Source: Verrucomicrobiia bacterium
Lineage (GTDB): Bacteria; Verrucomicrobiota; Verrucomicrobiia; Limisphaerales; JACQFS01
Assembly (NCBI GenBank): GCA_036522715.1
Contig: DATDFH010000421.1
Location: 1 to 32,562, forward strand
Direction of reading: 5' to 3'
DNA length: 32,562 bases
Part shown: positions 192-32,562 of the stretch, piece by piece
How the letters are laid out: each line of letters opens with the position of its first letter
Numbering within the stretch: the first letter of the stretch is position 1
Program-made: the position numbers and the translations under genes
The notes under the pieces: model-generated
What the model saw: the letters and a program-made list of their open reading frames with translations, nothing else
Database searches by the model: none
Told to the model about the DNA's origin: nothing

Positions 192-401
192 ATGAAAACA
201 CTGAATCCTACACTCGAGCGGCTCGAGGAACGAGTCGCACCAGACCTGTTCGGTACGATCGGGATCGGGGTTGGAGTGGGTCTGGGCGTTGGCATCGGCA
301 TTGGTGGAGGCACCAGCTGCCAAGACTCAGTGAGTTCCTGTGACAACAGCTCACGGGACACCAACAGTGGCACCTGCCACTGCGGGCGACACAGCCACTG
401 A
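192..401 (+). CDS. Small 69-aa Gly-zipper / Cys-His-rich peptide; candidate ribosomally made secreted peptide precursor (bacteriocin/RiPP-like)
   Basis: The ATG at 192 is in frame within ORF 147..401, with a purine-rich aaagaaag just upstream. Translation: MKTLNPTLERLEERVAPDLFGTIGIGVGVGLGVGIGIGGGTSCQDSVSSCDNSSRDTNSGTCHCGRHSH. It has a hydrophilic N-terminus containing LERLEERVAP, then a ~20-aa (G-x)n hydrophobic block, then a polar tail with 4 Cys and 3 His. It lies directly upstream of, and co-directional with, the PqqD-like/M50/HlyD gene. I recognise no family. A short ORF in GC-rich DNA is not proven to be coding. Confidence 0.5.
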   Translation: MKTLNPTLERLEERVAPDLFGTIGIGVGVGLGVGIGIGGGTSCQDSVSSCDNSSRDTNSGTCHCGRHSH

Positions 402-461
402 CGGCAGGGCTGAGTAGTCGGGCCTGTTAAAGGTCCGGCTGAACGGCCCACCAAATAACAA

Positions 462-490
462 GGGAGGGCCGCGGTTCTCGCGGCCTTCCC
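462..490 (+). terminator. GC-rich stem-loop between the peptide ORF and the downstream gene (possible partial terminator/attenuator or mRNA-stability hairpin)
   Basis: A 12-bp stem pairs 462-473 with 479-490 (one G:U at 466/486); the loop is gttct (474-478). Only a short ttt (493-495) follows. The hairpin lies between the peptide stop at 401 and the ATG at 524. Confidence 0.35.
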
Positions 491-523
491 CCTTTGGGTC
501 CGGAGATCAACCATTCCCGCCTC

Positions 524-2914
524 ATGTCTCGTGAACCGCCCAAACTCCGGAGCGACCTGCTGTTCAGCCGGCGGGAACGGGACGGGCGTACGACATTCGT
601 GGTCAAGGATCCGGCGGCCAGCCAGTTCTTCTCGCTGAAAGACGAGGAGCGTTTCATCGCGGCCCAACTTGACGGACATACTCCGCTGGAAACGATCCGC
701 CGGCGGGTCGAGGAAAAGTATGACGTCTCGCTCAGTCAGGAATCATTGGCGAGTTTCATCAAGAGCCTGCGCCACTCCAATCTTCTTGAAGCCGCGACCG
801 GGCCGGCGCAGCCAAAGCGACGAAGCCGCCTGCGGGGCGGACTGTTGTCGCTGCGATTCAAGGTGCTCGATCCGGACGCGCTGTTCACCCGATTGGCAAG
901 GAGGGTCCGCTTCTGTTTCACGCGCGGCTTCGTCACCTGGACGCTCGCGCTGATCGCGTTGGCGTTCATCGTCGCGGTCGGGAACTGGGACGCACTAAGA
1001 TTTGACCTCACCCGGCTGATTCGATGGGAGGCATTGGCCTGGTTGATCCCGGCGATGTTTGCGGTCTCGACGGCGCACGAATTCGCGCACGGGCTGACGT
1101 GCAAACATTTCGGCGGCGAGGTGCGCGAGTTGGGCCTGCTGCTGATGTATCTCCAGCCCGCGTTCTATTGCAACGTGAGCGACGCCTGGCTTCTCCCGGA
1201 AAAACGAAAGCGACTGTGGATCGGCTTTGCAGGACCGTACCTCGAATTGTTCGTGTGGACCTGCGCTGTGTTGGTCTGGCGCCTCACCGATCCGGAGTCG
1301 TTGCTCAACTACGGCGCCTTGGCGGTGATCGCCACCTCCGGCTTCAAGACGCTGATGAACTTCAATCCGCTGATCAAACTCGACGGCTACTATCTGCTTT
1401 GCGATCTGTTGGAGACGCCCAACCTGCGGCAACGTGCCTACGCTTACGTCGGCAATGCCATCCGGCGCCTGCTGGGATCGGGCGCCGACGAACCCGACGA
1501 ACTGTCGCGGCGCGAGCGGCGGATCTACCTCGCCTACGGACTGGTCGCCTCGGTGTTCTCCGTCTCGCTGCTGGGGTTCGCGCTGGTGAAGCTCGGCGGG
1601 TTCCTGATCGACAAGCAACTGACCGGGACGGCATTTCTGGCCACCGGTCTTCTGGGCTTGAAGTTCGGCCGGCGATTCAAGCGGCTGTTCGGCAAGACGT
1701 CAGACCCGTCCGCATCAGACGATATTTCCATCGCTGAGCCGTCAGGCGAATCGGACGGCGCATCGGACGAGTCGTCTCCCGCAGCGAAACGCAAGAAACC
1801 CGGCGGTCTCAACCGGCGCGCGGTGGTCGTGGCACTCCTCGCAGGAATCGGTTTGCCGCTTGCATTCCTCTGCCGGATGCAGCTTCGCATTTCAGGTCCT
1901 TTCATGGTGCTGCCGATCCACAACGCCGACGTGCGCGCCGAAGTCGGCGGCACCATCGAGGAAATTTTTGTGGACGAAGGCGCCGCGGTCCGCAAAGGCG
2001 ACCCGATCGCCCGGCTGTCTGATCGCGACAACCGCGCGGTGCTGGAGAGGACGTTGGCCGAAATGGAGCAGTTGCGGGCGCAGATCCGTTTGCTCGAAGC
2101 CGGGCCGCGCCCGCAGGAAATCGAACTGGCGCGAATCGCCGTCGCTCGCGCCGAGGAGCGGGCCAGGTTCATGCAAAAGAACCTTGAGCGCGACAAACAA
2201 CTGGTCCAGGACCAACTGCTCGCGCGAAAAGATTTCGATGCCAGCCAGCAGGCTGTGTTGGACAGCAAGAACGACATTGCCGATGCGAAGAAAAGACTGG
2301 AGTTGCTTCTTGCCGGCAGCCGGCTCGAGGACATCGAGGCCGCCAAGGCCGGCCTCGCCCGACTCGAAACTCAGCGCCGCTACGTGGAGGAACAACTGGC
2401 CCACGTCAAAGTCGTCAGCCCCGCTGCGGGCATCGTGACCACACCGTCGCGGGAACTGAAGGAGAAGATCGGCCTCGTCGTAAAGGAGGGAGACCTGATC
2501 GCCAAGGTCCATGAACTGGACTCGGTGGAAGTCGAGACACCCGTTTCCGAACGCGACATCGCCGACATCAAGGTCGGACAGAAAGTCGCGCTGAAAGCCC
2601 GGGCGTATCCCGAGCGAATGTTCTTCGGCACCGTCACGTCCATCGGCACCACCGCACAAATCGGAACGCCGGCGCAATTCGCCGCCAGCGGCGCTTCCAC
2701 TTCATCCACGTCAGCCAGTACGTCGTCGTCCAGCGGTGCGTCCCCGACGGCCCGGTCCGTTCTCGTGACGACCCAAATCAACAACGAGGACCAGTTGCTC
2801 AAACCCGGAATGACGGGGATGCTCAAGATCTCCTGCGGCACCCGTCGCATTTTCGATCTCCTGACGCGCCGCCTTGCCCGGACCATCCGGGTGGAATTCT
2901 GGTCCTGGTGGTAG
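524..2914 (+). CDS. Tri-domain fusion protein: PqqD-like (RRE-type) peptide-binding domain + peptidase M50 (site-2-protease family) + HlyD-family membrane fusion protein
   Basis: This is ORF 494..2914; I prefer the ATG at 524 over the TTG at 494. The N-terminus is PqqD-like (FVVKDPAASQFFSLKDEERFIAAQLDGHTPLETIRRRVEEKYDV...FIKSLRHSNLLE). A multi-TM core follows, with HEFAH (1076..1090) and the second M50 motif NFNPLIKLDGYY. Next come an acidic/Ser-rich linker and a TM segment (VVVALLAGIGLPLAFL). The HlyD part has a lipoyl-like hairpin (VRAEVGGTIEEIFVDEGAAVRKGDPIARL), a long coiled coil, VVSPAAGIV, and a beta-barrel (VGQKVALKARAYPERMFFGTVTSIG) interrupted by a Ser/Thr-rich insert. Confidence 0.85.
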   Translation: MSREPPKLRSDLLFSRRERDGRTTFVVKDPAASQFFSLKDEERFIAAQLDGHTPLETIRRRVEEKYDVSLSQESLASFIKSLRHSNLLEAATGPAQPKRRSRLRGGLLSLRFKVLDPDALFTRLARRVRFCFTRGFVTWTLALIALAFIVAVGNWDALRFDLTRLIRWEALAWLIPAMFAVSTAHEFAHGLTCKHFGGEVRELGLLLMYLQPAFYCNVSDAWLLPEKRKRLWIGFAGPYLELFVWTCAVLVWRLTDPESLLNYGALAVIATSGFKTLMNFNPLIKLDGYYLLCDLLETPNLRQRAYAYVGNAIRRLLGSGADEPDELSRRERRIYLAYGLVASVFSVSLLGFALVKLGGFLIDKQLTGTAFLATGLLGLKFGRRFKRLFGKTSDPSASDDISIAEPSGESDGASDESSPAAKRKKPGGLNRRAVVVALLAGIGLPLAFLCRMQLRISGPFMVLPIHNADVRAEVGGTIEEIFVDEGAAVRKGDPIARLSDRDNRAVLERTLAEMEQLRAQIRLLEAGPRPQEIELARIAVARAEERARFMQKNLERDKQLVQDQLLARKDFDASQQAVLDSKNDIADAKKRLELLLAGSRLEDIEAAKAGLARLETQRRYVEEQLAHVKVVSPAAGIVTTPSRELKEKIGLVVKEGDLIAKVHELDSVEVETPVSERDIADIKVGQKVALKARAYPERMFFGTVTSIGTTAQIGTPAQFAASGASTSSTSASTSSSSGASPTARSVLVTTQINNEDQLLKPGMTGMLKISCGTRRIFDLLTRRLARTIRVEFWSWW

Positions 2915-2960
2915 TCACCAACACCGTTTCAACGACGAACCATTCGACGATGACCCAGCG

Positions 2961-3929
2961 ATGATTGCGAATCCCACAATGCCCGAACCCGAAGCCGACG
3001 TCCCGGTGGAGACGAACCACGAGATCGTGGACGATTACGTCTATCTCATCGGCCGGCCGACGCTCCAGGCCTTTCTGAGCTTCGTCAAAAACCGCTCGCG
3101 GAACGGCCGTCGCGCCGATGTCGGAGCGCTCACCGACGAATGGCGCGCTGCCGCCCGGCACATTGCCAAATTGGAAAAAACCGAAGCCGGTCGCGCCGAC
3201 CGGCCCGCGATTCAGCCGTTGCCGGCACATCTGAAATCGCTCGAGGAGCAGTTCATGCGCGACCCACTCGTGCAAAACGGCTTCAACAACGTTCCCACCG
3301 AAATCGGCATGGTGGAACTCGACCGGCTCGTGGTTTACCAGCATCACATTGATCTCTCGTATGTCGCCAAGCTGAAAGAAAGACTCGGCCCGTCGCCGCG
3401 TGAAGAGGACATCTTCCGGCTCTGCCTGCCGTTCGACCGCCGCGATCCTCAAGTCAAATGGGCGCGGGTGCATCGCGACACCTACGTGTTCGAGTCGCCC
3501 TCGAACGATTTGCGCTTTCTCGGCGCGATGCCGTTGGAGCCGGCCAACATCACGGGCTGTCCGCCGCCCGGCGCGCTGGCCGGCGTGGTGGGTTTGGCGG
3601 TTGGCTTCGGCCCCAACTTCCTCAGTGTCATCAGCGCCTATGACCGGCTCATCCTGCACAACGGCAGTCACCGCGCCTTCGCGTTGCGTGAGCTCGGCGT
3701 GACCCATGCGCCGTGCGTCATCCAACACATCTATTCGCGCGAGGAACTCAACGTCGTGGCCGCCAGCGCGGTGACCGCGCGCCCGGACGTTTTCGTGGCG
3801 CAACCGCGCCCGCCGTTGCTCCGGGATTACTTCGACCCGGACCTGCGCAAGATCATTCCCGTCCTTCGCCGGCTGCGTCAGGTAACGGTAAAATTTCAAG
3901 TGGACGAAGGCTACGTGCCGGCCTTTTAG
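2961..3929 (+). CDS. Hypothetical protein with a C-terminal ParB/sulfiredoxin-like motif; function unknown
   Basis: This is the frame of ORF 2874..3929. The ATG at 2961 lies 47 nt after the upstream stop, whereas the TTG at 2874 would overlap it by 41 nt. I recognise no family for most of the protein. YDRLILHNGSHRAFALRELGVTHAPCVIQHI resembles the DGxHR...ELG core of ParB/Srx-fold domains; this is from memory and unverified. Confidence 0.6.
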   Translation: MIANPTMPEPEADVPVETNHEIVDDYVYLIGRPTLQAFLSFVKNRSRNGRRADVGALTDEWRAAARHIAKLEKTEAGRADRPAIQPLPAHLKSLEEQFMRDPLVQNGFNNVPTEIGMVELDRLVVYQHHIDLSYVAKLKERLGPSPREEDIFRLCLPFDRRDPQVKWARVHRDTYVFESPSNDLRFLGAMPLEPANITGCPPPGALAGVVGLAVGFGPNFLSVISAYDRLILHNGSHRAFALRELGVTHAPCVIQHIYSREELNVVAASAVTARPDVFVAQPRPPLLRDYFDPDLRKIIPVLRRLRQVTVKFQVDEGYVPAF

Positions 3930-4100
3930 CGAGGGGGGATTTTCAAGGCGCAGATCAACCCCTGCCGAGACAGTTGCGATTAGGAGACACGGGGTATTCA
4001 GCCCACTCGGGTTCCCTATTTTACCCCACCCGGATGGAGGTTTGTTCCCGCCTAGGCGTCCGGCGGAAAGCATTTACGGTTTGTCACAAGGAGCAGCGTC

Positions 4101-5255
4101 ATGCTCCGAAACGAAGTGCAAACTACAAACCAAAGGAATCCAATGAAGAACCCCACATGGGTGTCCCCACCCAAAATGGTGACCGTCAGCGCGTGCCTTG
4201 CTGCGATAGCCTTGACACTCGCCGACGGCCAGAAATCCCTGCTTGCGCAGGGTCTCCTCGAACAGTCTCCGGGCGTTGCCTACAGCGGTCAAGCCACGGC
4301 GATCAACATCACGGACACGCACAATTTTCCCAGTCCGATCGTGTTCTGTGACACCGGGCCGCTGCCCAGTGGCGGCGGCTTTCTCGAAGCCTCAGCCAAT
4401 GAGACGAGCGTCGCCAACGGGGCGCTCACCTTCCGCATGGCTCACGCCACCACGCGCGGCGATGGTCCCGAGGTCGTGTCGGACACTTCGGTGAACGACT
4501 TCTTCATCGAGATCATGGCGATGGATGGGACGATCTCCACGTTGCGCGCCCGTTTCGTCGGGTCCGAGGCGTCGGCCTCGTGCCGATCCAGCGGGCAGGT
4601 GGACGTCGGCGCCTCAGCCGTCATCGAGGGTCTGGTGCTCAACGGCGTCGCCGTCAAGGTCACCAAGAGGCCCAACCAGGTGGAGTACTTCCCCGGTGGA
4701 CGAATCATCATCAACGAGCAGAGCAGTTCTGTGAACGGGAGCATGGGTCACATCACCATTGTGGCCCTGCACATCCTTGTCGATGGCTGCATGAACGGGA
4801 TGATCGGCTTCGCCCACGCGGACATCACGTGTCCCAGCGGGACCACCGTGCCGCCGCCCGAATGCGGCAAGCTGACTGGCGGCGGATGGATTGTCGGAAC
4901 GCCCTCGGGTGCCAAGGGGACCTTCGCGGTCGGCGGCGGCATCCGTCGGGGTGAGTTCTGGGGCCACCTCAACTACATCGATCATGGCAACGGCATGCAC
5001 GTCCATGCGACATCGGTTACCGGTTTCACGGTCGATCCCAACGACTCGACCTGCCGGATCATCGACTACAACGTGACCATTGACGGGTCACCAGGCACCG
5101 CGAGGGTGCGCGCCTGCGACAAGGGCGAACCCGGCCGGGACGACATCTTTGAGATTCAGGTGTCCAACGGCTACTTCGCGGGCGGCGACCTCGGCGGCAA
5201 CGACCCGGGCGGCGGCAACATCCAGTTGCACAAGTGCCCGCCGGGCTGGCAGTGA
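4101..5255 (+). CDS. Secreted/anchored beta-rich hypothetical protein
   Basis: The ATG at 4101 is preceded by aaggag at 4088..4093. There is an N-terminal hydrophobic segment, MVTVSACLAAIALTLA. The segment NGVAVKVTKRPNQVEYFPGGRIIINEQ...ITIVALHI is reminiscent of choice-of-anchor-type secreted beta-sandwich families (unverified). The C-terminal half is Gly-rich with several Cys. Confidence 0.7.
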   Translation: MLRNEVQTTNQRNPMKNPTWVSPPKMVTVSACLAAIALTLADGQKSLLAQGLLEQSPGVAYSGQATAINITDTHNFPSPIVFCDTGPLPSGGGFLEASANETSVANGALTFRMAHATTRGDGPEVVSDTSVNDFFIEIMAMDGTISTLRARFVGSEASASCRSSGQVDVGASAVIEGLVLNGVAVKVTKRPNQVEYFPGGRIIINEQSSSVNGSMGHITIVALHILVDGCMNGMIGFAHADITCPSGTTVPPPECGKLTGGGWIVGTPSGAKGTFAVGGGIRRGEFWGHLNYIDHGNGMHVHATSVTGFTVDPNDSTCRIIDYNVTIDGSPGTARVRACDKGEPGRDDIFEIQVSNGYFAGGDLGGNDPGGGNIQLHKCPPGWQ

Positions 5256-5518: not shown

Positions 5519-5560
5519 ATGAAGCCCGTCCGCTTGTTGATGAAGCCCGTCCGCTTGTTG
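5519..5560 (+). repeat. Perfect 21-bp tandem duplication that includes the start codon (atgaagcccgtccgcttgttg x2)
   Basis: 5519-5539 and 5540-5560 are identical, giving MKPVRLL-MKPVRLL and two in-frame ATGs. aaagga lies about 8 nt upstream of the first copy. Confidence 0.95.
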
Positions 5561-8500
5561 AAACGAATCGTGGCACTGCTGTCGATGGGGATCATTGGCA
5601 TTGGCGCCGTCAACACCGGTGGCGACGCAAACCAAGCCCTGGCCGATGAGCCGCGTCTGAAGTTGAGCGTCCCCGGCGGGTTCGTCTTGGGTGTCCCCCC
5701 GCTGCAAATGCAGTTGACCGGTGATCCCAATCAGACCTACGTCATCCAGACCTCGACAGACCTGGCCAACTGGACCACCCTTTCCACCAATCAAACGGAC
5801 GCCACCGGCGCGGCGCGTTCGGAAGACGCGCAGTGGAGCCAGTTCAACAGCCGGTTCTATCGGGCGGTGCCGGTGGGCGTTCCAAATTTTCGCGGCGACA
5901 GAATTCTGGTCAAGCCGCTGCCCGGCGTGGATTTGACCGCGCTGCACGGAATCACCGGGGCGCAGGTTTTACGGCATTACCCAGCGATTGGGAACCTGCA
6001 AGTCGTCCACGTGCCGCCCGGGCTGACGGTGCCGGCGGTACTGGCGCTTTATCAACAGAGCGGACTCGTCGCGTATGCCGAAGCCGACGGCATCGTGCAC
6101 GCGCTGGCGACGCCAAATGACTTTCGTTATCAGGACGGTTCGTTGTGGGGACTGAACAACGTAGGTCAGCTCGGCGGCGTGCCCGACGCAGACATTGACG
6201 CGCCGGAAGGCTGGGACACCCAGAACAGTGCCGCCAACGTGATCGTGGCCGTAATCGACACGGGAGTGCGCTACACCCACGAAGATCTCGCGGCCAACAT
6301 GTGGGTCAATCCCGCCGACGGCAGCCACGGCATCAACGCCATCACCGACACCAACGATCCCAACGACGATCACGGGCACGGCAGCCACGTTGCGGGCACC
6401 ATCGGCGGTGTGGGCAACAACTCGGTCGGCGTCGTCGGCGTCTGCTGGAAGGTGCAGATCATGGCGCTCAAATTCCTGGACCCACAGGGCAACGGCTCGA
6501 TTTCCGACGCCATCCAGTGCATTGATTTCGCCCGGAACAACGGAGCGAAGGTGATCAACGCCAGTTGGGGCAGCACGACCTTCACGTCGCAGGCGCTGCA
6601 CGACGCGATCGCCAGCGCGGGCCAGGCCGGCATCATCTTTGTGGCCGCCGCCGGAAATTCCTCGGCCAACAACGACACCACGCCGCTCTATCCTGCCAGC
6701 TACGACTTGGACAACATCATCGCCGTCGCCGCGACCACGCGCACGGATGAACTGGCCACCTTTTCCGATTACGGCGCCGCGAGCGTGGACCTTGGCGCGC
6801 CGGGCGCGGCGATTTTCTCCTGCTGGAACGGCTCCGACAGCGACTACAAATATCTTGATGGCAGTTCCGCGGCCACGCCTCACGTCGCGGGAGCTTGCGC
6901 GTTGTTGATGGCCCGCTTCCCCGGCGAAGATTATCACCAGACGATCAATCGAATCCTCTCCACCGTCGATCCGCTGCCAACACTCGCGGGCAAGAGCGTC
7001 ACGGGCGGCCGGCTCAATCTGCAAAAGGCGCTCGGTGGCACGCCACCGCCTTCGCCAACTGTCACCGTGACGGCCACGGATGCCAACGCCTCAGAAGCCG
7101 GGCCTGACACGGGGACGTTTACGGTCACCCGCACGGGCGGAACCACGACGCCACTCGTCGTCAACTACACGCTTGGCGGCACGGCGGGAAACGGAACGGA
7201 TTATCAGAGCCTGCCGACCTCGGTGACAATTCCGGCCGGTGCAAGCTCGGCGAACATCACTGTGACACCCATCGACGACACGGCAGTCGAAGGCAACGAA
7301 TCGGTTGTCATCACGCTCGCGGCCGATGCGACGTACACCGTCGGCTCGCCTGGTAGCGCGACCATTACCATCGCGGACAATGACCAGACGACGCTGCCCG
7401 TGGTGACAGTGACGGCCATTGATCCCAACGCTTCCGAAACCGGACCCGATCCGGGCGTTATCCGTTTCCATCGCACCGGCGACACCTCGCAACCGCTGAC
7501 GGTGAACTGGTCGTTCTCCGGCACGGCGGTCAACGGGACTGACTACCAACAGTTGCCCACCACCGGCAACTTCCCCGCCGGCCAGGCTGACGCCGACCTG
7601 ACGATCACGCCCATCGACGATTCTCTAGTCGAAGGAAATGAAACCGTGGTGCTCACGCTCTCCGCGAATGCCGCCTACACGGTTGGCTCGCCCAGCAGCG
7701 CGACCGTGACCATCGCGGACAACGATTCACCGCCGCCGCTGCCGACTGTCACGGTTACGGCCACGGACGCCAACGCTTCTGAGTCGGGTGACACCGGGAC
7801 GTTCACTGTCAGCCGAACCGGGAGTACAGCCACCGCACTGACCGTGAACTACTCGTTGGGCGGCACCGCCGGCAACGGGTCGGATTATCAAACATTGTCC
7901 GGCTCGGTCACGATCGCAGCGGGCGCCAGTTCGGCGAACATCACCGTCACGCCCGTCGACGACACAATTGTCGAGGGCAACGAAACGGTCGTGCTCGCGA
8001 TCTCCGCGAATGCGGCATACACGATCGGTTCACCCGGCAGCGCAACGGTGACGATCGCGGACAACGATTCGCCGCCGCCACCACCAACCGTGACGGTTAC
8101 GGTTACAGATGCCAACGCCTCCGAATCGGGCGACACGGGCACGTTCACCGTGAGCCGCAGTGGAAGCACGGCCTCGTCGTTGACGGTCTTCTACTCGATG
8201 AGTGGCAGCGCGCAGAACGGGTCGGATTATCAAACGCTGTCCGGATCGGTGGCGATCCCGGCGGGCGCGAGTTCCGCGAACATCACCGTCACGCCGATTG
8301 ATGACACGATTGTGGAAGGCAACGAGACCGTCGTGCTCACGCTCTCCGCGAATGCCGCCTACACGGTTGGCTCGCCCAGCAGCGCGACCGTGACCATTGC
8401 CGACAACGATTCACCGCCGCCGCTGCCGACCGTGACGGTTGTCGCGAGCGACGCCAACGCCTCCGAAACGGGCGACACGGGCACGTTCACCGTGAGCCGC

Positions 8501-9073
8501 AGCGGAAGCACGGCCTCGTCGTTGACGGTCTTCTACTCGATGAGTGGCAGCGCGCAGAACGGGTCGGATTATCAAACGCTGTCCGGATCGGTGGCGATCC
8601 CGGCGGGCGCGAGTTCGGCCAACATCACGCTCGTGCCGATCAACGACACGATTGTCGAAGGCAACGAAACCGCCGTGCTGACGCTCTCGCCGAACGCGGC
8701 CTACTCCGTCGGCTCGCCGAACAACTCGACCGTCACCATTGCCGACAACGACCAGCCGCCGCCACTACAGGCCAACTTCACGGCGAGCCCGCTGCTGGGA
8801 ATCGTGCCGCTCATCGTGCAATTCGCCGACACGTCCACCGGCAATCCGGTTTCGTGGGACTGGAATTTCGGCGACGGCTCGCCTCACGACACGGCGCAGA
8901 ACACGTCGCATATTTATCTGCTGCCCGGCGATTACACGGCCACACTGACGGTTCGCAACAGCGCTGGCGCGACCAGCAGCAAGAGCGTGACGATCCACGC
9001 GACGTTGCTGGGATTGGGCCTCGAGCCGCCGCCCGCGACTCCCGCCGAGGCATTTCCAACCACGCTCCCATGA
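5519..9073 (+). CDS. Secreted subtilisin-family (S8) serine peptidase with 5 Calx-beta repeats and a C-terminal PKD domain
   Basis: The protein has a signal peptide, an FYR-type beta module (…TYVIQTSTDLANWTTL…RFYRAV) and an I9-like propeptide (FRGDRILVKP…YAEADGIVHA). The subtilase triad motifs are VAVIDTGV, HGHGSHVAGTIG and GSSAATPHVAG. Five 114-aa Calx-beta-type repeats follow (DANASE…NG.DY…DD..EGNE…IADND), then a PKD-like domain (WDWNFGDGS…YTATLTVRN). Confidence 0.9.
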   Translation: MKPVRLLMKPVRLLKRIVALLSMGIIGIGAVNTGGDANQALADEPRLKLSVPGGFVLGVPPLQMQLTGDPNQTYVIQTSTDLANWTTLSTNQTDATGAARSEDAQWSQFNSRFYRAVPVGVPNFRGDRILVKPLPGVDLTALHGITGAQVLRHYPAIGNLQVVHVPPGLTVPAVLALYQQSGLVAYAEADGIVHALATPNDFRYQDGSLWGLNNVGQLGGVPDADIDAPEGWDTQNSAANVIVAVIDTGVRYTHEDLAANMWVNPADGSHGINAITDTNDPNDDHGHGSHVAGTIGGVGNNSVGVVGVCWKVQIMALKFLDPQGNGSISDAIQCIDFARNNGAKVINASWGSTTFTSQALHDAIASAGQAGIIFVAAAGNSSANNDTTPLYPASYDLDNIIAVAATTRTDELATFSDYGAASVDLGAPGAAIFSCWNGSDSDYKYLDGSSAATPHVAGACALLMARFPGEDYHQTINRILSTVDPLPTLAGKSVTGGRLNLQKALGGTPPPSPTVTVTATDANASEAGPDTGTFTVTRTGGTTTPLVVNYTLGGTAGNGTDYQSLPTSVTIPAGASSANITVTPIDDTAVEGNESVVITLAADATYTVGSPGSATITIADNDQTTLPVVTVTAIDPNASETGPDPGVIRFHRTGDTSQPLTVNWSFSGTAVNGTDYQQLPTTGNFPAGQADADLTITPIDDSLVEGNETVVLTLSANAAYTVGSPSSATVTIADNDSPPPLPTVTVTATDANASESGDTGTFTVSRTGSTATALTVNYSLGGTAGNGSDYQTLSGSVTIAAGASSANITVTPVDDTIVEGNETVVLAISANAAYTIGSPGSATVTIADNDSPPPPPTVTVTVTDANASESGDTGTFTVSRSGSTASSLTVFYSMSGSAQNGSDYQTLSGSVAIPAGASSANITVTPIDDTIVEGNETVVLTLSANAAYTVGSPSSATVTIADNDSPPPLPTVTVVASDANASETGDTGTFTVSRSGSTASSLTVFYSMSGSAQNGSDYQTLSGSVAIPAGASSANITLVPINDTIVEGNETAVLTLSPNAAYSVGSPNNSTVTIADNDQPPPLQANFTASPLLGIVPLIVQFADTSTGNPVSWDWNFGDGSPHDTAQNTSHIYLLPGDYTATLTVRNSAGATSSKSVTIHATLLGLGLEPPPATPAEAFPTTLP
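7055..8764 (+). repeat. Five tandem 342-bp (114-codon) coding repeats encoding Calx-beta domains
   Basis: The span is exactly 5 x 342 bp. Repeat copies 4 and 5 differ at 2 of 164 nt (8111..8274 versus 8453..8616). 7649..7746 and 8333..8430 differ at 2 of 98 nt. These are in-frame protein repeats, not a CRISPR array. Confidence 0.9.
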
Positions 9074-14094: not shown

Positions 14095-17000
14095 ATGAAT
14101 CAGAACGAGGCATCCGATTTTGACGCGCTCTCATCCGCCCGTGAGGAGGAGGCGCAGAATTTCGCGCAACGTCGTGTTGGCACCAGCGGCGGAGCTGGAG
14201 TCAATGAACAGGCCGCACCCGCGGGACCATCGTCGTCCCGGACCAGCACCTGGGTCTTCATCGAATTGTTCGTGAAGCGGTGGGTCTGGCTGCTGCTCGG
14301 GGGCGCGGCGCTGGCGGCAGCGGCATGGGAGGCTGGCATGTGGCTGTTGCAGACCCATTTCACCGCCGTGGCGCAACTGATCTACTACGAGTCGCCCAAC
14401 GTTGCCGAGGTGTTCCGGCCGCGACAAATCACGCTCCAGACGCTGGCCAGCCAGCTTCGCGCGCCGGAACTTTTGGAGCGCGTCGGCGCCAAGGCCGAGC
14501 CGCCGCTTTCGGCCGAAGGCCTCGCTGCGAACTCGCGCGTTGTTCCGGAACGCGGCGCCGAGGTCGTGACCCTCTCCGTGACGGGGACTAATCTCTCCGC
14601 TTCGGTCGAACTGGCCAATCTCTACGCGCGCGAAGCCGTCCGCTACACGCAGGAAATTCAGGGCAAGGACGCCGCTGAAATCGACCGTTACGTCAAACAA
14701 CAACTGGCGCAGATCGACGCCGAAGTGAGCGTGATCAGCCAGCAGTTGCGTTCCCTGCCGCGCTCCGCCCTGCAATCGGCGGCGCATCCGGCGCAACTGT
14801 CGGAGAAGTTGCAGTCGGCGCGCGAGGAACTCGCGGCCTTGCAGGGACGTTACACTGACGCCCATCCCGCCGTGCAGGCGCAGCAGGCCAAAGTCGCCGC
14901 GCTGGAAAAATTTCTTGCCGGAAACGGCACCGGCGCCAACGGGACCACGGCGTCCGGCGAAGCAAAAGCATCCAACGACTCGAACGCTGGAAACCCGGTC
15001 GAGTTGAAGGAATCCGACCTGGAATCCCTCACGAGCCGGCTGCACGTGCTCTTGACCGGTCGCTTGCAATTGGTTGGCCGCCAGCGTGCCGCCCAGGAGT
15101 TCGCGGAAAATGCGCCAGGATTCTTCCGCGTGCTGGCTCCCGCCTCGCCGAAGGAAGTCATCCGCCACGACCGCGAAGTGAAGGTCGCCGCCCTGAGCGT
15201 CCTCGCCGGAATCATGGGCGTGTTCGTCACCGCCTGCCTGATCCTCCTGGTCGAACTGACCGGGCGCCATCTGAAAAACGCCGCGGATGTTGAGCGGGTC
15301 ACCCAGTTGCCACTGCTCGCGACGCTCGGTGACTTGGACAAGATGGAACCCAGCCAGCAGGCGCACTGGGCTTTTCGGACGTGGACCATTTTGCAGGGCC
15401 GGCTCTCGCATTCGCCCAATCACGGCCTGGTCTGCGGCTTCATTTCCTCCGAACGCGGTGAGGGCCGGTCCACCTGGGTGAACCTGCTGGCGCGCGCGGC
15501 CAGCGCCATGGGCTTCCGCGTCCTGACCATCGCCACCCAACCCACGACCTCGTTCGTCGAAGACCCGCACGCGATACCCAAGGAGATCGCCGACAAGGAT
15601 CAATTTCCACCGACGGCTGCCGACGCGCCCACGACGTCTGCCCTCACCCGCAACGTCCTGACATCGCCGACCGACGTGACGCAGAAGCTCGTCGGCCCGC
15701 ACTCGCAGCCGGTCGTCCACATCCCGTTGCCCGGCTGGGTATGGAATCTCGAACGGCGCAAGCAGTGGCAGGCCGCGCTGGAGAATTGGCGCGCGATCGA
15801 CAACATCGTCATCCTCGTTGAACTGCCGCCCGCCAGCGTGCCGGAGTCGGTGTTGCTCGGCGAAAACGTGCCGCAGGTCGTGTGGCTCACCGCCAGCGGC
15901 GAAGCCGATGCCGCTCAAACTCGCGAGCACCTGGAACTGCTCCGCCACGCCCGTTGCAATCTTGTCGGCGCCGTGCTCAATCACGCGCCGAACCACGCGC
16001 TGAAAAAACGTTTCGCCCGGTGGCTCGCCTGCGTGGCGTTGGGCGGCGCGATCACCCAGGCGCAAGCGCAACAAACCACTCCGACTTCCGCACCCGCCGC
16101 CGCCGGGGGACCACTGCCTCCGGCGCTCGCCGTCGTGCGGACGCCCCAGACCGTTCCCGCGGAGCCTGGCATCGGCCAGATTCCGGCGGCTGAGAACACC
16201 GGCCGCGCCATCGCGTGGTCGATGCCCGTGTCCGTTCGCGCCGCCGCCGAAGCTCCGGCAGTTCAAACGAATCTTTCCCTCGCCAGCATCGGCGCTCCGC
16301 AGCGCGCCGCGTGGCAGCAGCGCCTGACGCTCGGTCCCGGTGACGTTTTGAACTTCTCCCTCTTCGGCTCGCCGGAACTGGCGCGCAGCGAAGTCCTCAT
16401 CGGCCCCGACGGGCGCGTGAGTTACCTGCAGGCGCACGACATCCTGGCAGCGGGGCTGACCATCGACGAACTGCGCGCGAAGTTCGACGAGGAACTGGCG
16501 AAGTATCACCGCACACCGCGCACCCTCATCACGCCCGCGGCGTATCACAGCAAGAAATTCTTCATGCTCGGCACCGTGGTGCAAAAGGGCGTCTTCCCGC
16601 TCGACCGGCCGATGAGCATCATCGAAGCGGTGGCGCAGGGACGCGGGCTGGAAACCGGCTTGTTTGGCAACAACACACGCGAGCTGGCGGATTTGTCGCG
16701 GAGTTTCCTCGTGCGCCAGGGCAAGCGGATGCCGGTGGATTTCGAGAAGCTCTTTCAGTCAGGCGACCTCTCGCAAAACATTGCGCTCGAACCTGACGAC
16801 TACCTGTTTTTCCCGCCGACGGGCCTCCAGGAGGTCTATGTGCTGGGCGAAGTCAAGCTCCCCGGTCCAGTCGGCTACAATCCCGGCCTGGGCGCCGTGG
16901 CCGCCATCTCCCAGCGTGGTGGCTTCACCGACCGCGCGTGGAACGACCGCATACTGATCGTGCGCGGCTCGCTCAACCGACCCGAACCTTGGGCTTTGGA

Positions 17001-17178
17001 CGCGAAGGCAGTTCTTTCGGCCCGCGCGCTGGATTTTGCGCTGCAACCCAAGGACATCATCTACGTGAGCCATCGCCCGTGGATCAAAGCGGAGGAATTG
17101 CTCGACGCCGCTGCGACGTCCTTTGTGCAGGCGGCGGTCATCGTGTGGACCGGACAGAACGTCGGCACATCGAGATAG
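14095..17178 (+). CDS. Fusion of a polysaccharide co-polymerase (Wzz/chain-length determinant with a degenerate BY-kinase-like P-loop domain) to a Wza/OPX-like polysaccharide export domain
   Basis: TM1 is WVWLLLGGAALAAAAW, followed by a periplasmic coiled coil. A Pro-rich segment plus TM2 follows (LAPASPKEV…VAALSVLAGIMGVFVTACLILLV). The P-loop-like domain has GEGRST (15457..15474) and DNIVILVELPP. A third hydrophobic segment is KKRFARWLACVALGGAITQAQA (about 16003..16070). The C-terminal region is Poly_export/SLBB-like (LTLGPGDVLNFSLFG…GPDGRVSYL; YVLGEVKLPGPVGY). Confidence 0.8.
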   Translation: MNQNEASDFDALSSAREEEAQNFAQRRVGTSGGAGVNEQAAPAGPSSSRTSTWVFIELFVKRWVWLLLGGAALAAAAWEAGMWLLQTHFTAVAQLIYYESPNVAEVFRPRQITLQTLASQLRAPELLERVGAKAEPPLSAEGLAANSRVVPERGAEVVTLSVTGTNLSASVELANLYAREAVRYTQEIQGKDAAEIDRYVKQQLAQIDAEVSVISQQLRSLPRSALQSAAHPAQLSEKLQSAREELAALQGRYTDAHPAVQAQQAKVAALEKFLAGNGTGANGTTASGEAKASNDSNAGNPVELKESDLESLTSRLHVLLTGRLQLVGRQRAAQEFAENAPGFFRVLAPASPKEVIRHDREVKVAALSVLAGIMGVFVTACLILLVELTGRHLKNAADVERVTQLPLLATLGDLDKMEPSQQAHWAFRTWTILQGRLSHSPNHGLVCGFISSERGEGRSTWVNLLARAASAMGFRVLTIATQPTTSFVEDPHAIPKEIADKDQFPPTAADAPTTSALTRNVLTSPTDVTQKLVGPHSQPVVHIPLPGWVWNLERRKQWQAALENWRAIDNIVILVELPPASVPESVLLGENVPQVVWLTASGEADAAQTREHLELLRHARCNLVGAVLNHAPNHALKKRFARWLACVALGGAITQAQAQQTTPTSAPAAAGGPLPPALAVVRTPQTVPAEPGIGQIPAAENTGRAIAWSMPVSVRAAAEAPAVQTNLSLASIGAPQRAAWQQRLTLGPGDVLNFSLFGSPELARSEVLIGPDGRVSYLQAHDILAAGLTIDELRAKFDEELAKYHRTPRTLITPAAYHSKKFFMLGTVVQKGVFPLDRPMSIIEAVAQGRGLETGLFGNNTRELADLSRSFLVRQGKRMPVDFEKLFQSGDLSQNIALEPDDYLFFPPTGLQEVYVLGEVKLPGPVGYNPGLGAVAAISQRGGFTDRAWNDRILIVRGSLNRPEPWALDAKAVLSARALDFALQPKDIIYVSHRPWIKAEELLDAAATSFVQAAVIVWTGQNVGTSR

Positions 17179-17199
17179 GAACGGAAAAGTTTTGTAGCC

Positions 17200-18333
17200 A
17201 TGAAGCAAATTCGGCTCAACGCCTGGCTCGGATTGGCGACCGCCTTGGTCGCTGGTTGTCAGAGCCGCGGGCCGCAGTTCGATGCCTGGATGAACAATCC
17301 CAATCGTTCGGCTGCGGCGGCGCTGCTCGTTTCGGTGCCTGCGACCAACCGGGTAAACCCCGAGTGGCTGCGGCCCGCCCCAAATTTCTTCACCCTCGGT
17401 CCCGGCGACCGCCTGGAACTCGAAGTCTTCGGGGACGAAACGACGCGCACGTCGACGTTCGTCGGGCCGGACGGCAAGATTTACTTTTACCTGCTGCCGG
17501 GCCTTGACGTGAGCGGACTCACACTGGCCCAGACCAAAGCGCTGCTGGAGCGCGAACTCACCAAATACATCCGCGAGGAACCGCAATTGACCCTGACGTT
17601 GCACAGCGTGGAGAGCAAACGCGTCTGGCTGCTCGGACGCCTTACCGCACCGGGTGTGTACCCGATGAACGGCCCGATGACCTTGCTCGAGGCCATCGCG
17701 CTGGCGGGCGGACCGGCGCGGGCGGCTCCCGCCGCGTTGGTGGGCGGCGCGAGCCTCACGTTGAACGTCGCGTCCGGAGCGGAAGACGTGGCCGACTTGC
17801 GCCGCAGCTTTGTCATTCGCGGCGGCCAGTTTCTGCCGGTCGATTTCCACCGGCTGCTCCGTGAAGGCGACGCAACGCAAAACATCTATTTGCAGCCGGA
17901 TGATTTCGTCTATGTGCCCTCCGCTGTGGCGCGCGAGGTCTATGTGCTCGGCTCGGTGGCGCAGCCGCGCGCAATCGCGTTCAAAGACCAGCTCACCCTC
18001 GTCTCCGCCATCGGTGGCGCCGGAGGAACCATCAAAGGCGCCTACGTTTCCCACGTCGCCATCGTGCGTGGCTCGCTCACCTCGCCCCAAATCGCGACTG
18101 TCGATTTCCAGAACATCATCGAGGGCCGGACGCCCGACGTGCTGCTCGAACCCCACGACATCGTGTACGTCCCGCGCACGCCTTACTTCATCCTCACGCG
18201 CTACCTCGACATCATCCTCGATACGTTCGTGCGCACCGTCGCGGCCAACGAAGGCGCGCGCGCGGTCGTACGTGGTGCCTTGCCATTGGGCATCAATGTC
18301 CCCATCGGCGTGGGCGTTGGGACCCCTCCGTGA
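17200..18333 (+). CDS. Wza-like outer-membrane polysaccharide export lipoprotein (Poly_export + SLBB)
   Basis: The lipobox is LATALVAGC. The Poly_export-type motif is FTLGPGDRLELEVFG…VGPDGKIYF. SLBB-like segments are VWLLGRLTAPGVYP and VYVLGSVAQPRAIAF. The gene is paralogous to the C-terminal third of the upstream gene and starts 21 nt after its stop. Confidence 0.85.
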   Translation: MKQIRLNAWLGLATALVAGCQSRGPQFDAWMNNPNRSAAAALLVSVPATNRVNPEWLRPAPNFFTLGPGDRLELEVFGDETTRTSTFVGPDGKIYFYLLPGLDVSGLTLAQTKALLERELTKYIREEPQLTLTLHSVESKRVWLLGRLTAPGVYPMNGPMTLLEAIALAGGPARAAPAALVGGASLTLNVASGAEDVADLRRSFVIRGGQFLPVDFHRLLREGDATQNIYLQPDDFVYVPSAVAREVYVLGSVAQPRAIAFKDQLTLVSAIGGAGGTIKGAYVSHVAIVRGSLTSPQIATVDFQNIIEGRTPDVLLEPHDIVYVPRTPYFILTRYLDIILDTFVRTVAANEGARAVVRGALPLGINVPIGVGVGTPP

Positions 18334-31559: not shown

Positions 31560-32562
31560 CTATTCCAGGCGGGCCATCAATTCGCGAGCCACGACGCGCA
31601 CATGAGGTTCTTCAAGGATCGTTTCGTGCGCGCCGGGAACGATCTTCACCGTCACGCCCTCGCCAGCCAGTTCCCGCCAGCCGAACGCGAAATCAAACGA
31701 GCAGAAAAACGGATGCACCTTGGTGCGGAAGAGCGTGACGTGACCGGAGTACGGCTTGGGCACGTAATCGCGCAGGTTGCGAATGTGGATGTCCCAGAGC
31801 TTGCGCTCGTATTCAGCGTAGGAGGAGAGATCGAGCCAGCCTTCGGCTTCACTGCCGGGAGCCGCGTCGGTGGACGGGCCGAACCAGCGGCGGATGCGCT
31901 TCCGGGTCGCGCGGAATTTTCGGCGGAAGAAATCGCGGCGCTGTTCGGGTTTCCAGCGGCTGAAAGCAACGAGCCAGTTGGTCGTGTTGACGAGAAACCT
32001 CGCCACCAGACGCAGGCTCCAGCGTGCCTGATAGTAGCCGGAGTTGGGCGGCATGCAGTTGAACAATGCCAGCAGCGCGACACATTGCCCCTGGGCGTGA
32101 AGCTGACGGGCCATTTCGTAAGCCACGTTGCCGCCAAAACAGTAGCCGCCGAGATGATATGGACCACGCGGCTGGAACGCACGCAGATCAGCCACGTAGT
32201 GCGCGGCCATCTCCTCGATGCGCGAGAATTCCTGCAAATGATCCAGGCCGCGCGATTTGAAGGCGTACACCGGTTGTTCGGGTCCCAGGTGACGCGAGAG
32301 GTTCGTGTAACCCCACAACATTCCGCCGCCGACGCCGTGAACGAAAAACAGCGGCGGCCTCGAACCGGCGGGCTGAATGGCCACGATGGACGAGCCGGGT
32401 TGCGCGTTTCGCTCGCCGCGAAGAATCTGCGCCAGCGCGTCAATCGTCTGGACTTCGCAGAGCGTGGCGACGGAAATCTTTTTGCCAAAAACTTTTTCGA
32501 TCTGCGCGACAAGCCGCGCCGCTTGCAACGAATGGCCGCCGAGGTCGAAAAATCTTTCGTCC
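31560..32562 (-). CDS. 3' end of an NRPS/PKS-type megasynthase gene (partial): carrier-protein domain + type I thioesterase domain with a Cys in the nucleophile motif
   Basis: The reading frame is open to the window edge. Its translation starts …DERFFDLGGHSLQAARLVAQIEKVFG, the phosphopantetheine-attachment motif GGHS, with the Ser codon at 32529..32531. The TE domain shows PPLFFVHGVGG, HLGGYCFGGNVAYEMA (Cys codon 32139..32141) and PGAHETIL. The 'M' at 32528 in the ORF track is a TTG Leu codon inside the carrier domain. Confidence 0.85.
   Translation of the reverse strand, partial: DERFFDLGGHSLQAARLVAQIEKVFGKKISVATLCEVQTIDALAQILRGERNAQPGSSIVAIQPAGSRPPLFFVHGVGGGMLWGYTNLSRHLGPEQPVYAFKSRGLDHLQEFSRIEEMAAHYVADLRAFQPRGPYHLGGYCFGGNVAYEMARQLHAQGQCVALLALFNCMPPNSGYYQARWSLRLVARFLVNTTNWLVAFSRWKPEQRRDFFRRKFRATRKRIRRWFGPSTDAAPGSEAEGWLDLSSYAEYERKLWDIHIRNLRDYVPKPYSGHVTLFRTKVHPFFCSFDFAFGWRELAGEGVTVKIVPGAHETILEEPHVRVVARELMARLE

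Follow-up and report, generated by a model that had tools for sequence, protein, structure and literature searches.

A leader-peptide protease homolog fused to a periplasmic adaptor in a widespread, undescribed peptide cassette without a linked ABC transporter

Several systems that mature or export ribosomal peptides share parts with the locus examined here. In the characterized daptide cluster of Microbacterium, the leader, which carries the motif ELExMEAP, is removed by MpaP (MpaP/DapP), an RRE-dependent intramembrane site-2 protease (S2P) (bioRxiv 10.1101/2023.03.08.531785). Class II microcins and bacteriocins leave the cell through the adaptor CvaA, the C39-peptidase ABC transporter CvaB (a PCAT) and TolC. 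Adaptors of the EmrA, HlyD and MacA type have an N-terminal transmembrane (TM) anchor, a lipoyl domain, a long alpha-hairpin with an RLS-type tip linked to TolC docking, and a beta-barrel, and every characterized adaptor of this fold works with a separate inner-membrane pump. YydH/LiaK, finally, is a membrane HExxH protease of the S2P type that matures epipeptides. Here we describe a gene of a Verrucomicrobiia bacterium (GCA_036522715.1, contig DATDFH010000421.1, positions 1 to 32,562, the whole stretch analyzed and hereafter the window) in which such a protease and such an adaptor are joined in one 796-residue chain.

A preliminary description, made from the sequence alone, had proposed that one polypeptide joins a PqqD-like domain, an M50 core, an acidic linker with a further TM helix, and a HlyD-type adaptor with a Ser/Thr insert in its barrel. 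Our analysis confirms this observation. The open reading frame spans 494..2914 (+), and alignment with homologs puts its start at ATG 524. All sequence elements lie where they had been placed, including NFNPLIKLDGYY at aa 279-290, within which the NxxPxxxxDG motif occupies aa 279-288. Two details are corrected: the coiled coil is about 126 rather than about 150 residues long, and the membrane part, described as a core of four to six TM helices and one more, is best read as six TM helices plus one anchor helix.

Table 1. Features of the window, with the data that support each of them (AF2, AlphaFold2 model; invariance refers to 112 homologs of the fusion protein)
Position	Strand	Feature	Supporting data
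192..401	+	Precursor peptide gene (69 aa); leader MKTLNPTLERLEERVAP (nt 192-242), core DLFGTIGIGVGVGLGVGIGIGGGTSCQDSVSSCDNSSRDTNSGTCHCGRHSH	Orthologous peptides upstream of the fusion gene in three compared loci; codon-position entropy 0.56/0.14/1.32, showing protein-level selection, with most of the variation at the third position; only such leader motif in the window
407..491	+	Two strong predicted RNA hairpins between precursor and fusion genes, the second (462-491) followed by UUUGGG	MFE -66.7 kcal/mol, z -4.86, 0 of 200 shuffles fold as well; a hairpin with GGGAGG-like and CCUUCC-like outer arms recurs at the same place in five loci, including the three with orthologous peptides
524..2914	+	RRE-S2P-adaptor fusion gene (796 aa)	Profile matches, homologs and AF2 model (see text)
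542..787	+	PqqD/RRE-like domain (aa 7-88), predicted cytoplasmic, inferred to bind the leader	PF05402 at aa 27-88, 15.9 bits against a cut-off of 23.4, E 0.017; AF2 strands 13-19, 22-29, 34-39, then helices 40-48, 55-66, 72-84, pLDDT 83-94 for aa 13-84; covered by the NF041824 match
905..1690	+	S2P (M50) membrane core (aa about 128-389), about 6 TM helices; HEFAH (HExxH, aa 185-189) at nt 1076-1090, NxxPxxxxDG at nt 1358-1387	H185, E186, H189, P282, D287 and G288 invariant in 112 of 112; HEFAH at the end of predicted helix 168-195; TM count from hydrophobic segments and AF2 helices
1694..1810	+	Disordered acidic Ser-rich linker (aa 391-429), predicted cytoplasmic, flanked by basic stretches	pLDDT below 50; length and sequence vary across the family, position constant
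1811..1879	+	Seventh TM helix (aa 430-452), anchor of the adaptor	Hydropathy 2.2; AF2 helix at 430-449; HlyD and EmrA chains align from this helix onward
1880..2911	+	Periplasmic adaptor (aa 453-796): lipoyl domain, alpha-hairpin aa 501-626 (nt 2024-2401), beta-barrel, C-terminal amphipathic helix ending in the invariant KVEFWSWW; no membrane-proximal domain	PDB profile hits to MacA (1.4e-18), EmrA (1.7e-13) and HlyD (7.5e-12)
2189..2224	+	Hairpin-tip RLS-type motif R556-x3-L560-x6-(S/T)567; Ala at 567 in the window	R in 112 of 112, L in 110 of 112, S/T in 90 of 112
2663..2746 (approximate)	+	Ser/Thr/Ala/Gly low-complexity insert (aa 714-741) in the beta-barrel	pLDDT below 50, between strands 700-707 and 745-753; all homologs have an insert here, without sequence conservation
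2961..3929	+	Conserved 322-aa soluble partner protein of no known family; invariant NGSHR (aa 234-238) in a possible ParB/Srx-like core	Immediately 3' of the fusion in 34 of 69 loci with enough DNA; more than 1,000 homologs, nearly all unnamed or hypothetical; AF2 pLDDT 83

The identity of the adaptor half is firmly supported, as HlyD_D23 (PF16576) scores 69.6 bits against a cut-off of 30, PF13437 scores 55 against 22.2, and TIGR01730 (RND_mfp) scores 96.8 against 94.9. Foldseek matches the AF2 model to MacA, EmrA and AcrA at E 1e-17 to 1e-15, with MacA and EmrA at 1e-17. The protease core falls below the Pfam M50 threshold (PF02163, 22.8 bits against 27.2, with only aa 176-245 matched), the family being divergent from the Pfam seed, but the N-terminal half matches the daptide intramembrane metalloprotease model NF041824 over positions 14-361 of 379 (348 positions; E 6.7e-67). 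A PDB sequence search with this half returned no solved relative, and the top 50 Foldseek hits of the whole model were all adaptors, so that the S2P fold is not confirmed structurally against the PDB. While the PqqD part likewise stays below threshold by sequence, its predicted structure shows the canonical winged-helix order of three strands followed by three helices.

Could the fusion be an artifact of assembly or frameshifting, an outcome that had been named beforehand as fatal to the proposal? We found nothing in favor of this, although stand-alone RRE-S2P proteins of about 405 aa do exist elsewhere. More than 3,500 homologous database clusters exist, most of the best 120 being about 790 aa long and covering 97-100% of the query, and at least 553 loci in species-representative genomes from about ten phyla carry the fusion. 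A genome scan with the single protein had found only distant HlyD adaptors, whereas rescanning with an alignment of homologs recovered these loci. These thousands of independent full-length homologs come from different sources and phyla, the linker and TM7 are present in all aligned homologs and the reading frame is uninterrupted, and we reject the artifact as all but excluded. A search for stand-alone RRE-S2P genes beside a separate HlyD gene yielded one copy next to a B12-radical SAM gene instead, the other contigs being too short or lacking a record.

The gene is part of a cassette. In 61 of 73 loci with upstream DNA, one to nine small ORFs share the leader M-K-x-L-x-L-x-h-E-E-L-E-(E/Q)-R-I-A-P, followed by hypervariable Gly/Ser/Asn/Pro-rich cores, while 12 of the 73 showed no leader ORF with our pattern. 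All 103 such ORFs lie on the strand of the fusion, and 96 of them are upstream, at a median of about 420 bp. Positions that the search pattern left wholly or partly free are near-invariant, with E-9 in 95, L-7 in 100, E-6 in 103 and A-2 in 102 of 103. More precursor genes may lie upstream of position 1 of the window. The hairpin between precursor and fusion genes is attenuator-like, and the partner gene starts 46 nt after the stop codon of the fusion, both of which we take as operon signals; Rfam and tRNA scans of the window found nothing.

The partner protein, present in about half the loci, has no Pfam or NCBIfam family, with no Pfam hit in 57 members. The motif NGSHR is invariant and resembles the (D/N)GxHR of ParB/Srx-fold NTP-binding proteins, a SerK model hits weakly at E 0.004 over 44 residues, and the top Foldseek hits are nearly all ParB, Noc, Srx, SbnI or SerK, but only at E 0.1-1 over about 50 residues. 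A PDB profile search gave only phosphorylase hits at chance level, which we rejected.

What can be inferred about the role of the fusion protein? We favor, with moderate confidence, a function as the processing and export component of a ribosomal-peptide cassette. In this view, the cytoplasmic RRE domain binds the leader of the peptide encoded just upstream, and the S2P core, with H185, H189 and D287 as zinc ligands and E186 as the catalytic residue, removes it, by analogy with MpaP directly after the invariant Pro, the leaderless peptide of the window being predicted to start at Asp18 of the precursor. The attached EmrA/HlyD-type adaptor would probably oligomerize and dock by its RLS hairpin tip onto a TolC-type outer-membrane channel encoded elsewhere, through which the mature Gly/Ser-rich peptide leaves the cell. 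In the subtype of the window, the 322-aa protein would act on or with the same precursor before export, and the K/R versus E dependence at leader position -8 predicts that it reads the leader. Our data establish the domain identities, the conserved motifs, the genetic linkage to leader peptides and the absence of a linked transporter, whereas leader binding, the cleavage site, oligomerization, docking, the step across the inner membrane and export itself are inferred, in the absence of any experiment. Several features sit less easily with this model. No TolC-like gene is in the window, whose protein has Ala at the third RLS position, no energy source or inner-membrane translocator is identified, and many cores, especially in type-B loci, which consist only of peptide genes plus the fusion, are fully hydrophilic, which is unusual for an intramembrane protease substrate.

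A function in regulated intramembrane proteolysis or quality control, with the HlyD-like ectodomain as a sensor or scaffold and the small ORFs as incidental neighbors, appears very unlikely. Classical S2Ps such as RseP and SpoIVFB do act in signaling, and the Pfam M50 match is weak. However, the RRE fold and the homology to the daptide peptidase argue for a peptide substrate, the leader ORFs are conserved across phyla with a coding signature, no sigma or anti-sigma neighbors are conserved, and the TolC-docking tip motif is retained.

The interpretation offered in the preliminary description is supported in part. The three-part architecture holds at the level of sequence, motif and predicted structure, and the hint that an upstream peptide is the substrate is strongly supported. 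The statement that no characterized example is on record also holds: literature searches combining M50, HlyD, RRE and site-2 protease found no description of the fusion, apparent hits in two reviews matched only a residue M507 and a DOI, a search for the leader motif ERIAP was swamped by "periapical", and the TMcin preprint describes a different S2P-like leader peptidase in a cluster with an ABC exporter. The homology to the daptide peptidase, the RLS motif and the conserved cassette with its third gene had been missed. The further idea, that the M50 core doubles as the inner-membrane partner or conduit, is neither shown nor excluded.

How might the peptide cross the inner membrane? A two-motif check for ABC ATPases hit an ORF in only 1 of 83 loci, within up to 8-10 kb, clustering of neighbors revealed no conserved transporter, the only conserved neighbors being the peptides and the 322-aa protein, and no pump is in the window. 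It is possible, if tentative, that an ordinary ABC, MFS or RND pump encoded elsewhere is recruited by the adaptor half, as EmrB is by EmrA or CvaB by CvaA. Every characterized adaptor of this fold works with a separate inner-membrane pump, structures 5nik, 8zar and 8dck being among our hits, S2Ps have no known transport activity, and outer-membrane channels and some pumps are commonly unlinked. However, partners of dedicated peptide exporters are normally co-encoded, and the adaptor lacks the membrane-proximal domain that contacts MacB- or RND-type pumps. Alternatively, the S2P modules of an oligomeric, for example hexameric, fusion could themselves form the entry, cleavage releasing the core directly into the adaptor tunnel without ATP. 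The protease is the only membrane module in cis, type-B loci lack further genes, the covalent fusion is kept across about ten phyla, and the fused part occupies the position of the cytoplasmic, substrate-sensing N-terminus of HlyD. However, S2Ps are not known to transport peptides, no energy source is identified, and the hydrophilic cores would need an aqueous path; we consider this reading unlikely on present evidence, an unlinked pump remaining equally possible. If true, it would constitute a new kind of trans-envelope secretion machine, recognizing the leader ELE[EQ]RIAP, cutting it and passing the peptide into a TolC-type duct with no ABC, MFS or RND pump and no ATPase; in this equally doubtful scenario the ParB/Srx-like partner would, in the subtype of the window, in addition be a new RiPP-tailoring enzyme, for example an NTP-dependent modifier of Ser/His-rich cores.

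The cassette is very common in uncultivated soil and sediment bacteria, yet it is annotated only as an "HlyD family adaptor" or "multidrug efflux pump", and its peptides and third gene have no family model. Its simple leader rule defines a large, easily mined class of secreted or processed ribosomal peptides, including microcin-like Gly-rich peptides, His/Cys-rich peptides that might bind metals, and N/P/G-rich cores conserved across phyla. It also raises, in a form testable with two or three genes, the question of whether a periplasmic adaptor can work without a classical energized pump.

Among the described systems, YydH/LiaK (NF058609) is only distantly similar (E 6e-8, aa 137-299), and no radical SAM epimerase or YydIJ-type ABC transporter was seen in the window or among the conserved neighbors. 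From EmrA, HlyD and MacA, whose architecture it otherwise shares, the protein differs in the roughly 430 residues of RRE-S2P and linker that precede the anchor, in lacking the membrane-proximal domain and a cognate pump gene, in the disordered barrel insert and in the invariant C-terminus. With the CvaA-CvaB-TolC route it shares the logic of a small Gly-rich peptide with a short leader, leader removal coupled to export and a HlyD-family adaptor docking on TolC, here inferred, and the core in the window resembles class II microcins in style, with a Gly-rich hydrophobic stretch and a Cys-containing C-terminus. However, the protease is a zinc S2P with an RRE rather than a C39 cysteine peptidase and is fused to the adaptor rather than to the pump, the leader ends in A-P rather than in a double glycine, there is no C39 or ABC domain in the fusion, and no immunity gene is evident. 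From the daptide peptidase it is set apart by the added linker, TM helix and adaptor, and by its score of 226.2 bits against an equivalog cut-off of 300, which makes it a homolog, not an equivalog. The cores lack the aliphatic stretch, and no invariant C-terminal Thr is visible in the 103 listed sequences; nor is an aminotransferase, alcohol dehydrogenase, methyltransferase, DUF-RRE or ABC transporter gene of daptide clusters a conserved neighbor or annotated in the window. Nevertheless, both have an N-terminal RRE and an S2P core, their leaders carry E-8, L-7 and P-1 in the same register and end in A-P, and several precursor genes can sit in one locus. The cassette extends the daptide-type RRE-S2P leader peptidase from the Microbacterium cluster in which it was characterized into mostly soil lineages known as diderms, Verrucomicrobiota, Gemmatimonadota, Acidobacteriota and others.

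Is the joining of a protease and an export adaptor in one polypeptide genuine? The gene is the longest ORF at the left end of the window, and alignment with homologues places its start at the ATG given in the table, yielding a protein of 796 aa. All sequence elements named in the preliminary description, namely the HEFAH motif, NFNPLIKLDGYY, the acidic Ser-rich stretch and the Ser/Thr insert, are present where it had put them, and its observation is confirmed. The C-terminal half passes curated thresholds, with HlyD_D23 scoring 69.6 bits against a cut-off of 30 and TIGR01730 RND_mfp scoring 96.8 against 94.9. While the Pfam matches to M50 and PqqD stay below threshold (22.8 against 27.2 and 15.9 against 23.4 bits, respectively), the NCBIfam model NF041824, the daptide biosynthesis intramembrane metalloprotease, matches aa 21-376 at E 6.7e-67 (226 bits, cut-off 300). 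A search of 5.8 billion clustered proteins gave 3,567 hits, and most of the best 120 are about 790 aa long, cover 97-100% of the query and are 46-68% identical to it. A profile-guided scan of one genome per species gave at least 553 confirmed loci from Verrucomicrobiota, Gemmatimonadota, Acidobacteriota, Eisenbacteria, Rokubacteria, Bacteroidota, Ignavibacteriota, Proteobacteria, Nitrospinae and Phycisphaerae, the closest being a locus in a soil Verrucomicrobia MAG (L086, 64% identity). The N-terminal half alone has 1,950 relatives at E <= 1e-30 among 50%-identity representatives, most of the best 150 being 680-950 aa long, and the linker and the seventh TM helix are present in every aligned member. 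An assembly or frameshift artefact, which had been named beforehand as an outcome that would refute the observation, is excluded. The RRE-S2P module also occurs in other putative RiPP clusters, as a stand-alone homologue of 404 aa without an adaptor sits directly upstream of a B12-binding radical SAM gene in a further locus, L098.

The AF2 model, built from 112 sequences, has a mean pLDDT of 82.6. It predicts three strands followed by three helices at the N-terminus, which is the RRE/PqqD fold, and then a helical membrane core, in which the HExxH motif lies at the end of a helix and is followed by a beta-hairpin and further helices. A disordered segment and a TM helix lead into a lipoyl domain, a four-helix hairpin, a beta-barrel with a disordered insert and a terminal helix. 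Hydropathy and the positive-inside distribution fit an N-in, 6+1 TM, C-out topology, which is an inference. Residues invariant in 112 of 112 sequences include H185, E186, H189, C193, P282, D287 and G288, and the C-terminus, KVEFWSWW, is almost invariant. A profile search of PDB sequences hits MacA (1.4e-18), EmrA (1.7e-13) and HlyD (7.5e-12), with the EmrA and HlyD alignments beginning at the TM anchor, while Foldseek gives MacA, EmrA and AcrA at E 1e-17 to 1e-15. The hairpin tip carries R556-x3-L560-x6-S/T567, present in 112, 110 and 90 of 112 sequences, respectively; this is the RLS motif used by MacA, AcrA and HlyD to dock on TolC. There is no membrane-proximal domain, so the adaptor is of the EmrA/HlyD type.

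Features of the window and of related loci (L-numbers) discussed in the text; nucleotide positions, with residues of the 796-aa fusion protein where applicable
Feature	Position (nt)	Strand	Residues (aa)
Precursor-like peptide gene (69 aa)	192..401	+	
Two strong hairpins between precursor and fusion genes	407..491	+	
ORF of the fusion gene (start at ATG 524)	494..2914	+	1-796
NF041824 match		+	21-376
Predicted RRE/PqqD fold		+	13-84
Helix ending in HExxH		+	168-195
HEFAH	1076-1090	+	185-189
Beta-hairpin of the membrane core		+	202-217
NFNPLIKLDGYY		+	279-290
End of the helices of the membrane core		+	389
Acidic Ser-rich stretch, predicted disordered		+	391-429
TM helix		+	430-449
Four-helix hairpin		+	501-626
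Ser/Thr insert in the beta-barrel, predicted disordered		+	714-741
Terminal helix		+	776-795
Partner gene (322-aa protein)	2961..3929	+	
Long antisense ORFs	2823..4073; e.g. 1534..2346, 1892..2677	-	
Choice-of-anchor-P / post-COAP-1 protein and S8 subtilase with five Calx-beta repeats	4101..5255 and 5519..9073	+	
Two adjacent Wza-like genes, followed by GH9 cellulase-like protein	14095..18333 and 18519..25646	+	
Thioesterase domain preceded by the end of a PP-binding domain	31560..32528	-	
Choice-of-anchor-P paralogues and S8 proteases in L001	13623..22460		
Stand-alone RRE-S2P homologue and B12-binding radical SAM gene in L098	383..2925		

The fusion gene belongs to a conserved cassette. The small ORF upstream of it encodes a precursor-like peptide with a 17-aa leader ending in RVAP, MKTLNPTLERLEERVAP, followed by DLFGTIGIGVGVGLGVGIGIGGGTSCQDSVSSCDNSSRDTNSGTCHCGRHSH, which contains a Gly/Ile/Val-rich hydrophobic stretch and a Cys/His-rich C-terminus (TCHCGRHSH), suggesting disulfides or metal binding. 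Orthologues with the same leader and the same C-terminal TNSGTCHCxRHSH lie upstream of the fusion in three related loci, L001, L003 and L086. Across the fetched loci, a pattern scan found 103 ORFs with the leader, all of them on the strand of the fusion and 96 upstream of it, with 1-9 per locus; they are present in 61 of 73 loci that have at least 400 bp of upstream DNA. The consensus is M(-17) K L(-14) x L(-12) x h(-10) E(-9) E/K(-8) L(-7) E(-6) E/Q(-5) R(-4) I(-3) A(-2) P(-1), and positions that the search pattern left wholly or partly free are near-invariant, with E-9 in 95, L-7 in 100, E-6 in 103 and A-2 in 102 of 103. Codon-position entropy is 0.56, 0.14 and 1.32 for positions 1, 2 and 3, which shows selection on the protein. 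The cores have a median length of 36 aa and are composed of 24% Gly, 14% Ser, 11% Asn and 8% Pro. The 123-nt spacer between precursor and fusion folds into two strong hairpins (z -4.86), and a hairpin with GGGAGG-like and CCUUCC-like outer arms, but a different interior, recurs at this position in Verrucomicrobia and Gemmatimonadales loci. This arrangement resembles the attenuators that set the precursor-to-enzyme ratio in RiPP operons; it may be an attenuator or a processing site.

A third gene lies immediately 3' of the fusion in 34 of 69 loci that have enough downstream DNA, across phyla. Its 322-aa product, for which an identical protein is on record, has more than 1,000 homologues, nearly all unnamed or called hypothetical, and matches no Pfam or NCBIfam family. 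While the AF2 model is confident (pLDDT 83, pTM 0.78), Foldseek finds only weak local matches (E 0.1-1, about 50 residues), nearly all to ParB/Srx-fold proteins, namely ParB, Noc, PadC, sulfiredoxin, SbnI, free serine kinase and Atu1540. This agrees with a weak SerK hit over the invariant NGSHR motif, but we treat a ParB/Srx-like NTP-binding core as tentative. The presence of this partner correlates almost perfectly with the residue at leader position -8: with K/R/Q it is found in 22 of 25 loci, with E in 0 of 26. So there are two types of cassette. Type A, which includes the window, has S/G/K/H-rich or GIGIG-plus-His/Cys cores and the partner, whereas type B has N/P/G-rich cores and consists only of peptide genes plus the fusion. 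In type-B loci (L033, L046, L049, L056, L060, L063, L065, L072, L077, L080, L081 and others), the same core peptides recur almost unchanged upstream of the fusion match in different phyla, as exemplified by GNPGNNNPPLNNTNNPGNEGTGGQVSTG, GIGGTPGTGTSNSNGHGTEVSGGSTPQPEPGR and repeats of GYEGQPGNQG, with up to 9 precursor genes per locus (L072) and no tailoring gene nearby.

Clustering of all neighbouring ORFs shows no other conserved neighbour. In type-B loci, the flanks are unrelated and often on the opposite strand, and a combined Walker-A plus LSGGQ check found an ABC-ATPase-like ORF in 1 of 83 loci. Long ORFs opposite the fusion and partner genes are shadow ORFs typical of 62% G+C DNA, one of which clustered as a spurious family in the neighbour analysis. 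The rest of the window encodes a choice-of-anchor-P protein, S8 proteases with Calx-beta repeats, histidine kinases and a response regulator, Wza-like proteins, a giant GH9 protein and an NRPS-type thioesterase end, but no pump and no outer-membrane factor. The choice-of-anchor-P / post-COAP-1 protein and an S8 subtilase follow the cassette; choice-of-anchor-P paralogues and S8 proteases also follow it in L001, and choice-of-anchor-P homologues lie upstream of the fusion in another locus, L064, which looks like lineage-specific synteny rather than an established functional link. Of the two adjacent Wza-like (Poly_export + SLBB) genes, one has an N-terminal extension of about 700 aa, and they are followed by a 2,375-aa secreted GH9 cellulase-like protein with Calx-beta and Ig domains. 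The thioesterase domain is the terminal part of an NRPS/PKS-type gene near the right end of the window, and the related contig L001 also has an NRPS a few kb from its cassette.

What mechanism do these findings suggest? In the best supported view, the RRE would bind the leader in the cytoplasm, the S2P would remove it after Pro-1, and the fused adaptor would link the event to a TolC-type channel for export. While the homologies, the conserved residues and the linkage to leader-bearing ORFs are established by our analysis, leader binding, cleavage, docking and export are inferred from them. For the step across the inner membrane, either an unlinked pump may be recruited, or the S2P/TM ring may itself be the entry, as the preliminary description had suggested in proposing that the protease core may double as the inner-membrane partner or conduit. 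The linkage data lean against a dedicated pump but cannot exclude a housekeeping one; of the preliminary interpretation, the three-part architecture is supported, while the conduit idea is on present evidence neither shown nor excluded. No paper in the literature searched describes an M50/S2P-HlyD fusion, the ELE(E/Q)RIAP leader or the partner protein, and public annotation calls the fusion "HlyD family efflux transporter periplasmic adaptor subunit", "multidrug resistance efflux pump" or "putative peptide zinc metalloprotease protein". All the parts belong to known kinds, while their combination, the lack of a pump, the leader class and the partner are new; a mechanistically new secretion route remains a minority possibility.

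The daptide clusters were found through RRE domains fused N-terminally to an intramembrane site-2 protease, with a reported leader motif ELExMEAP, mutational positions E-8, L-7, M-4, E-3 and P-1, and leader removal by the RRE-dependent intramembrane peptidase MpaP (bioRxiv 10.1101/2023.03.08.531785; PMC10036551). The leader described here, ELE(E/Q)RIAP, has E-8, L-7, A-2 and P-1 in the same register, which together with the 226-bit match makes homologous leader recognition, with cleavage after the Pro, the best inference. However, the system is not a daptide system, as the equivalog cut-off is not reached, the cores lack the aliphatic stretch and the invariant C-terminal Thr, and none of the daptide tailoring genes or ABC transporters was seen in the window or among the conserved neighbours. 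In function, the analogue is class II microcin export by CvaA, CvaB (a PCAT) and TolC; here, an RRE-S2P takes the place of the C39 peptidase and is fused to the adaptor instead of to the pump.
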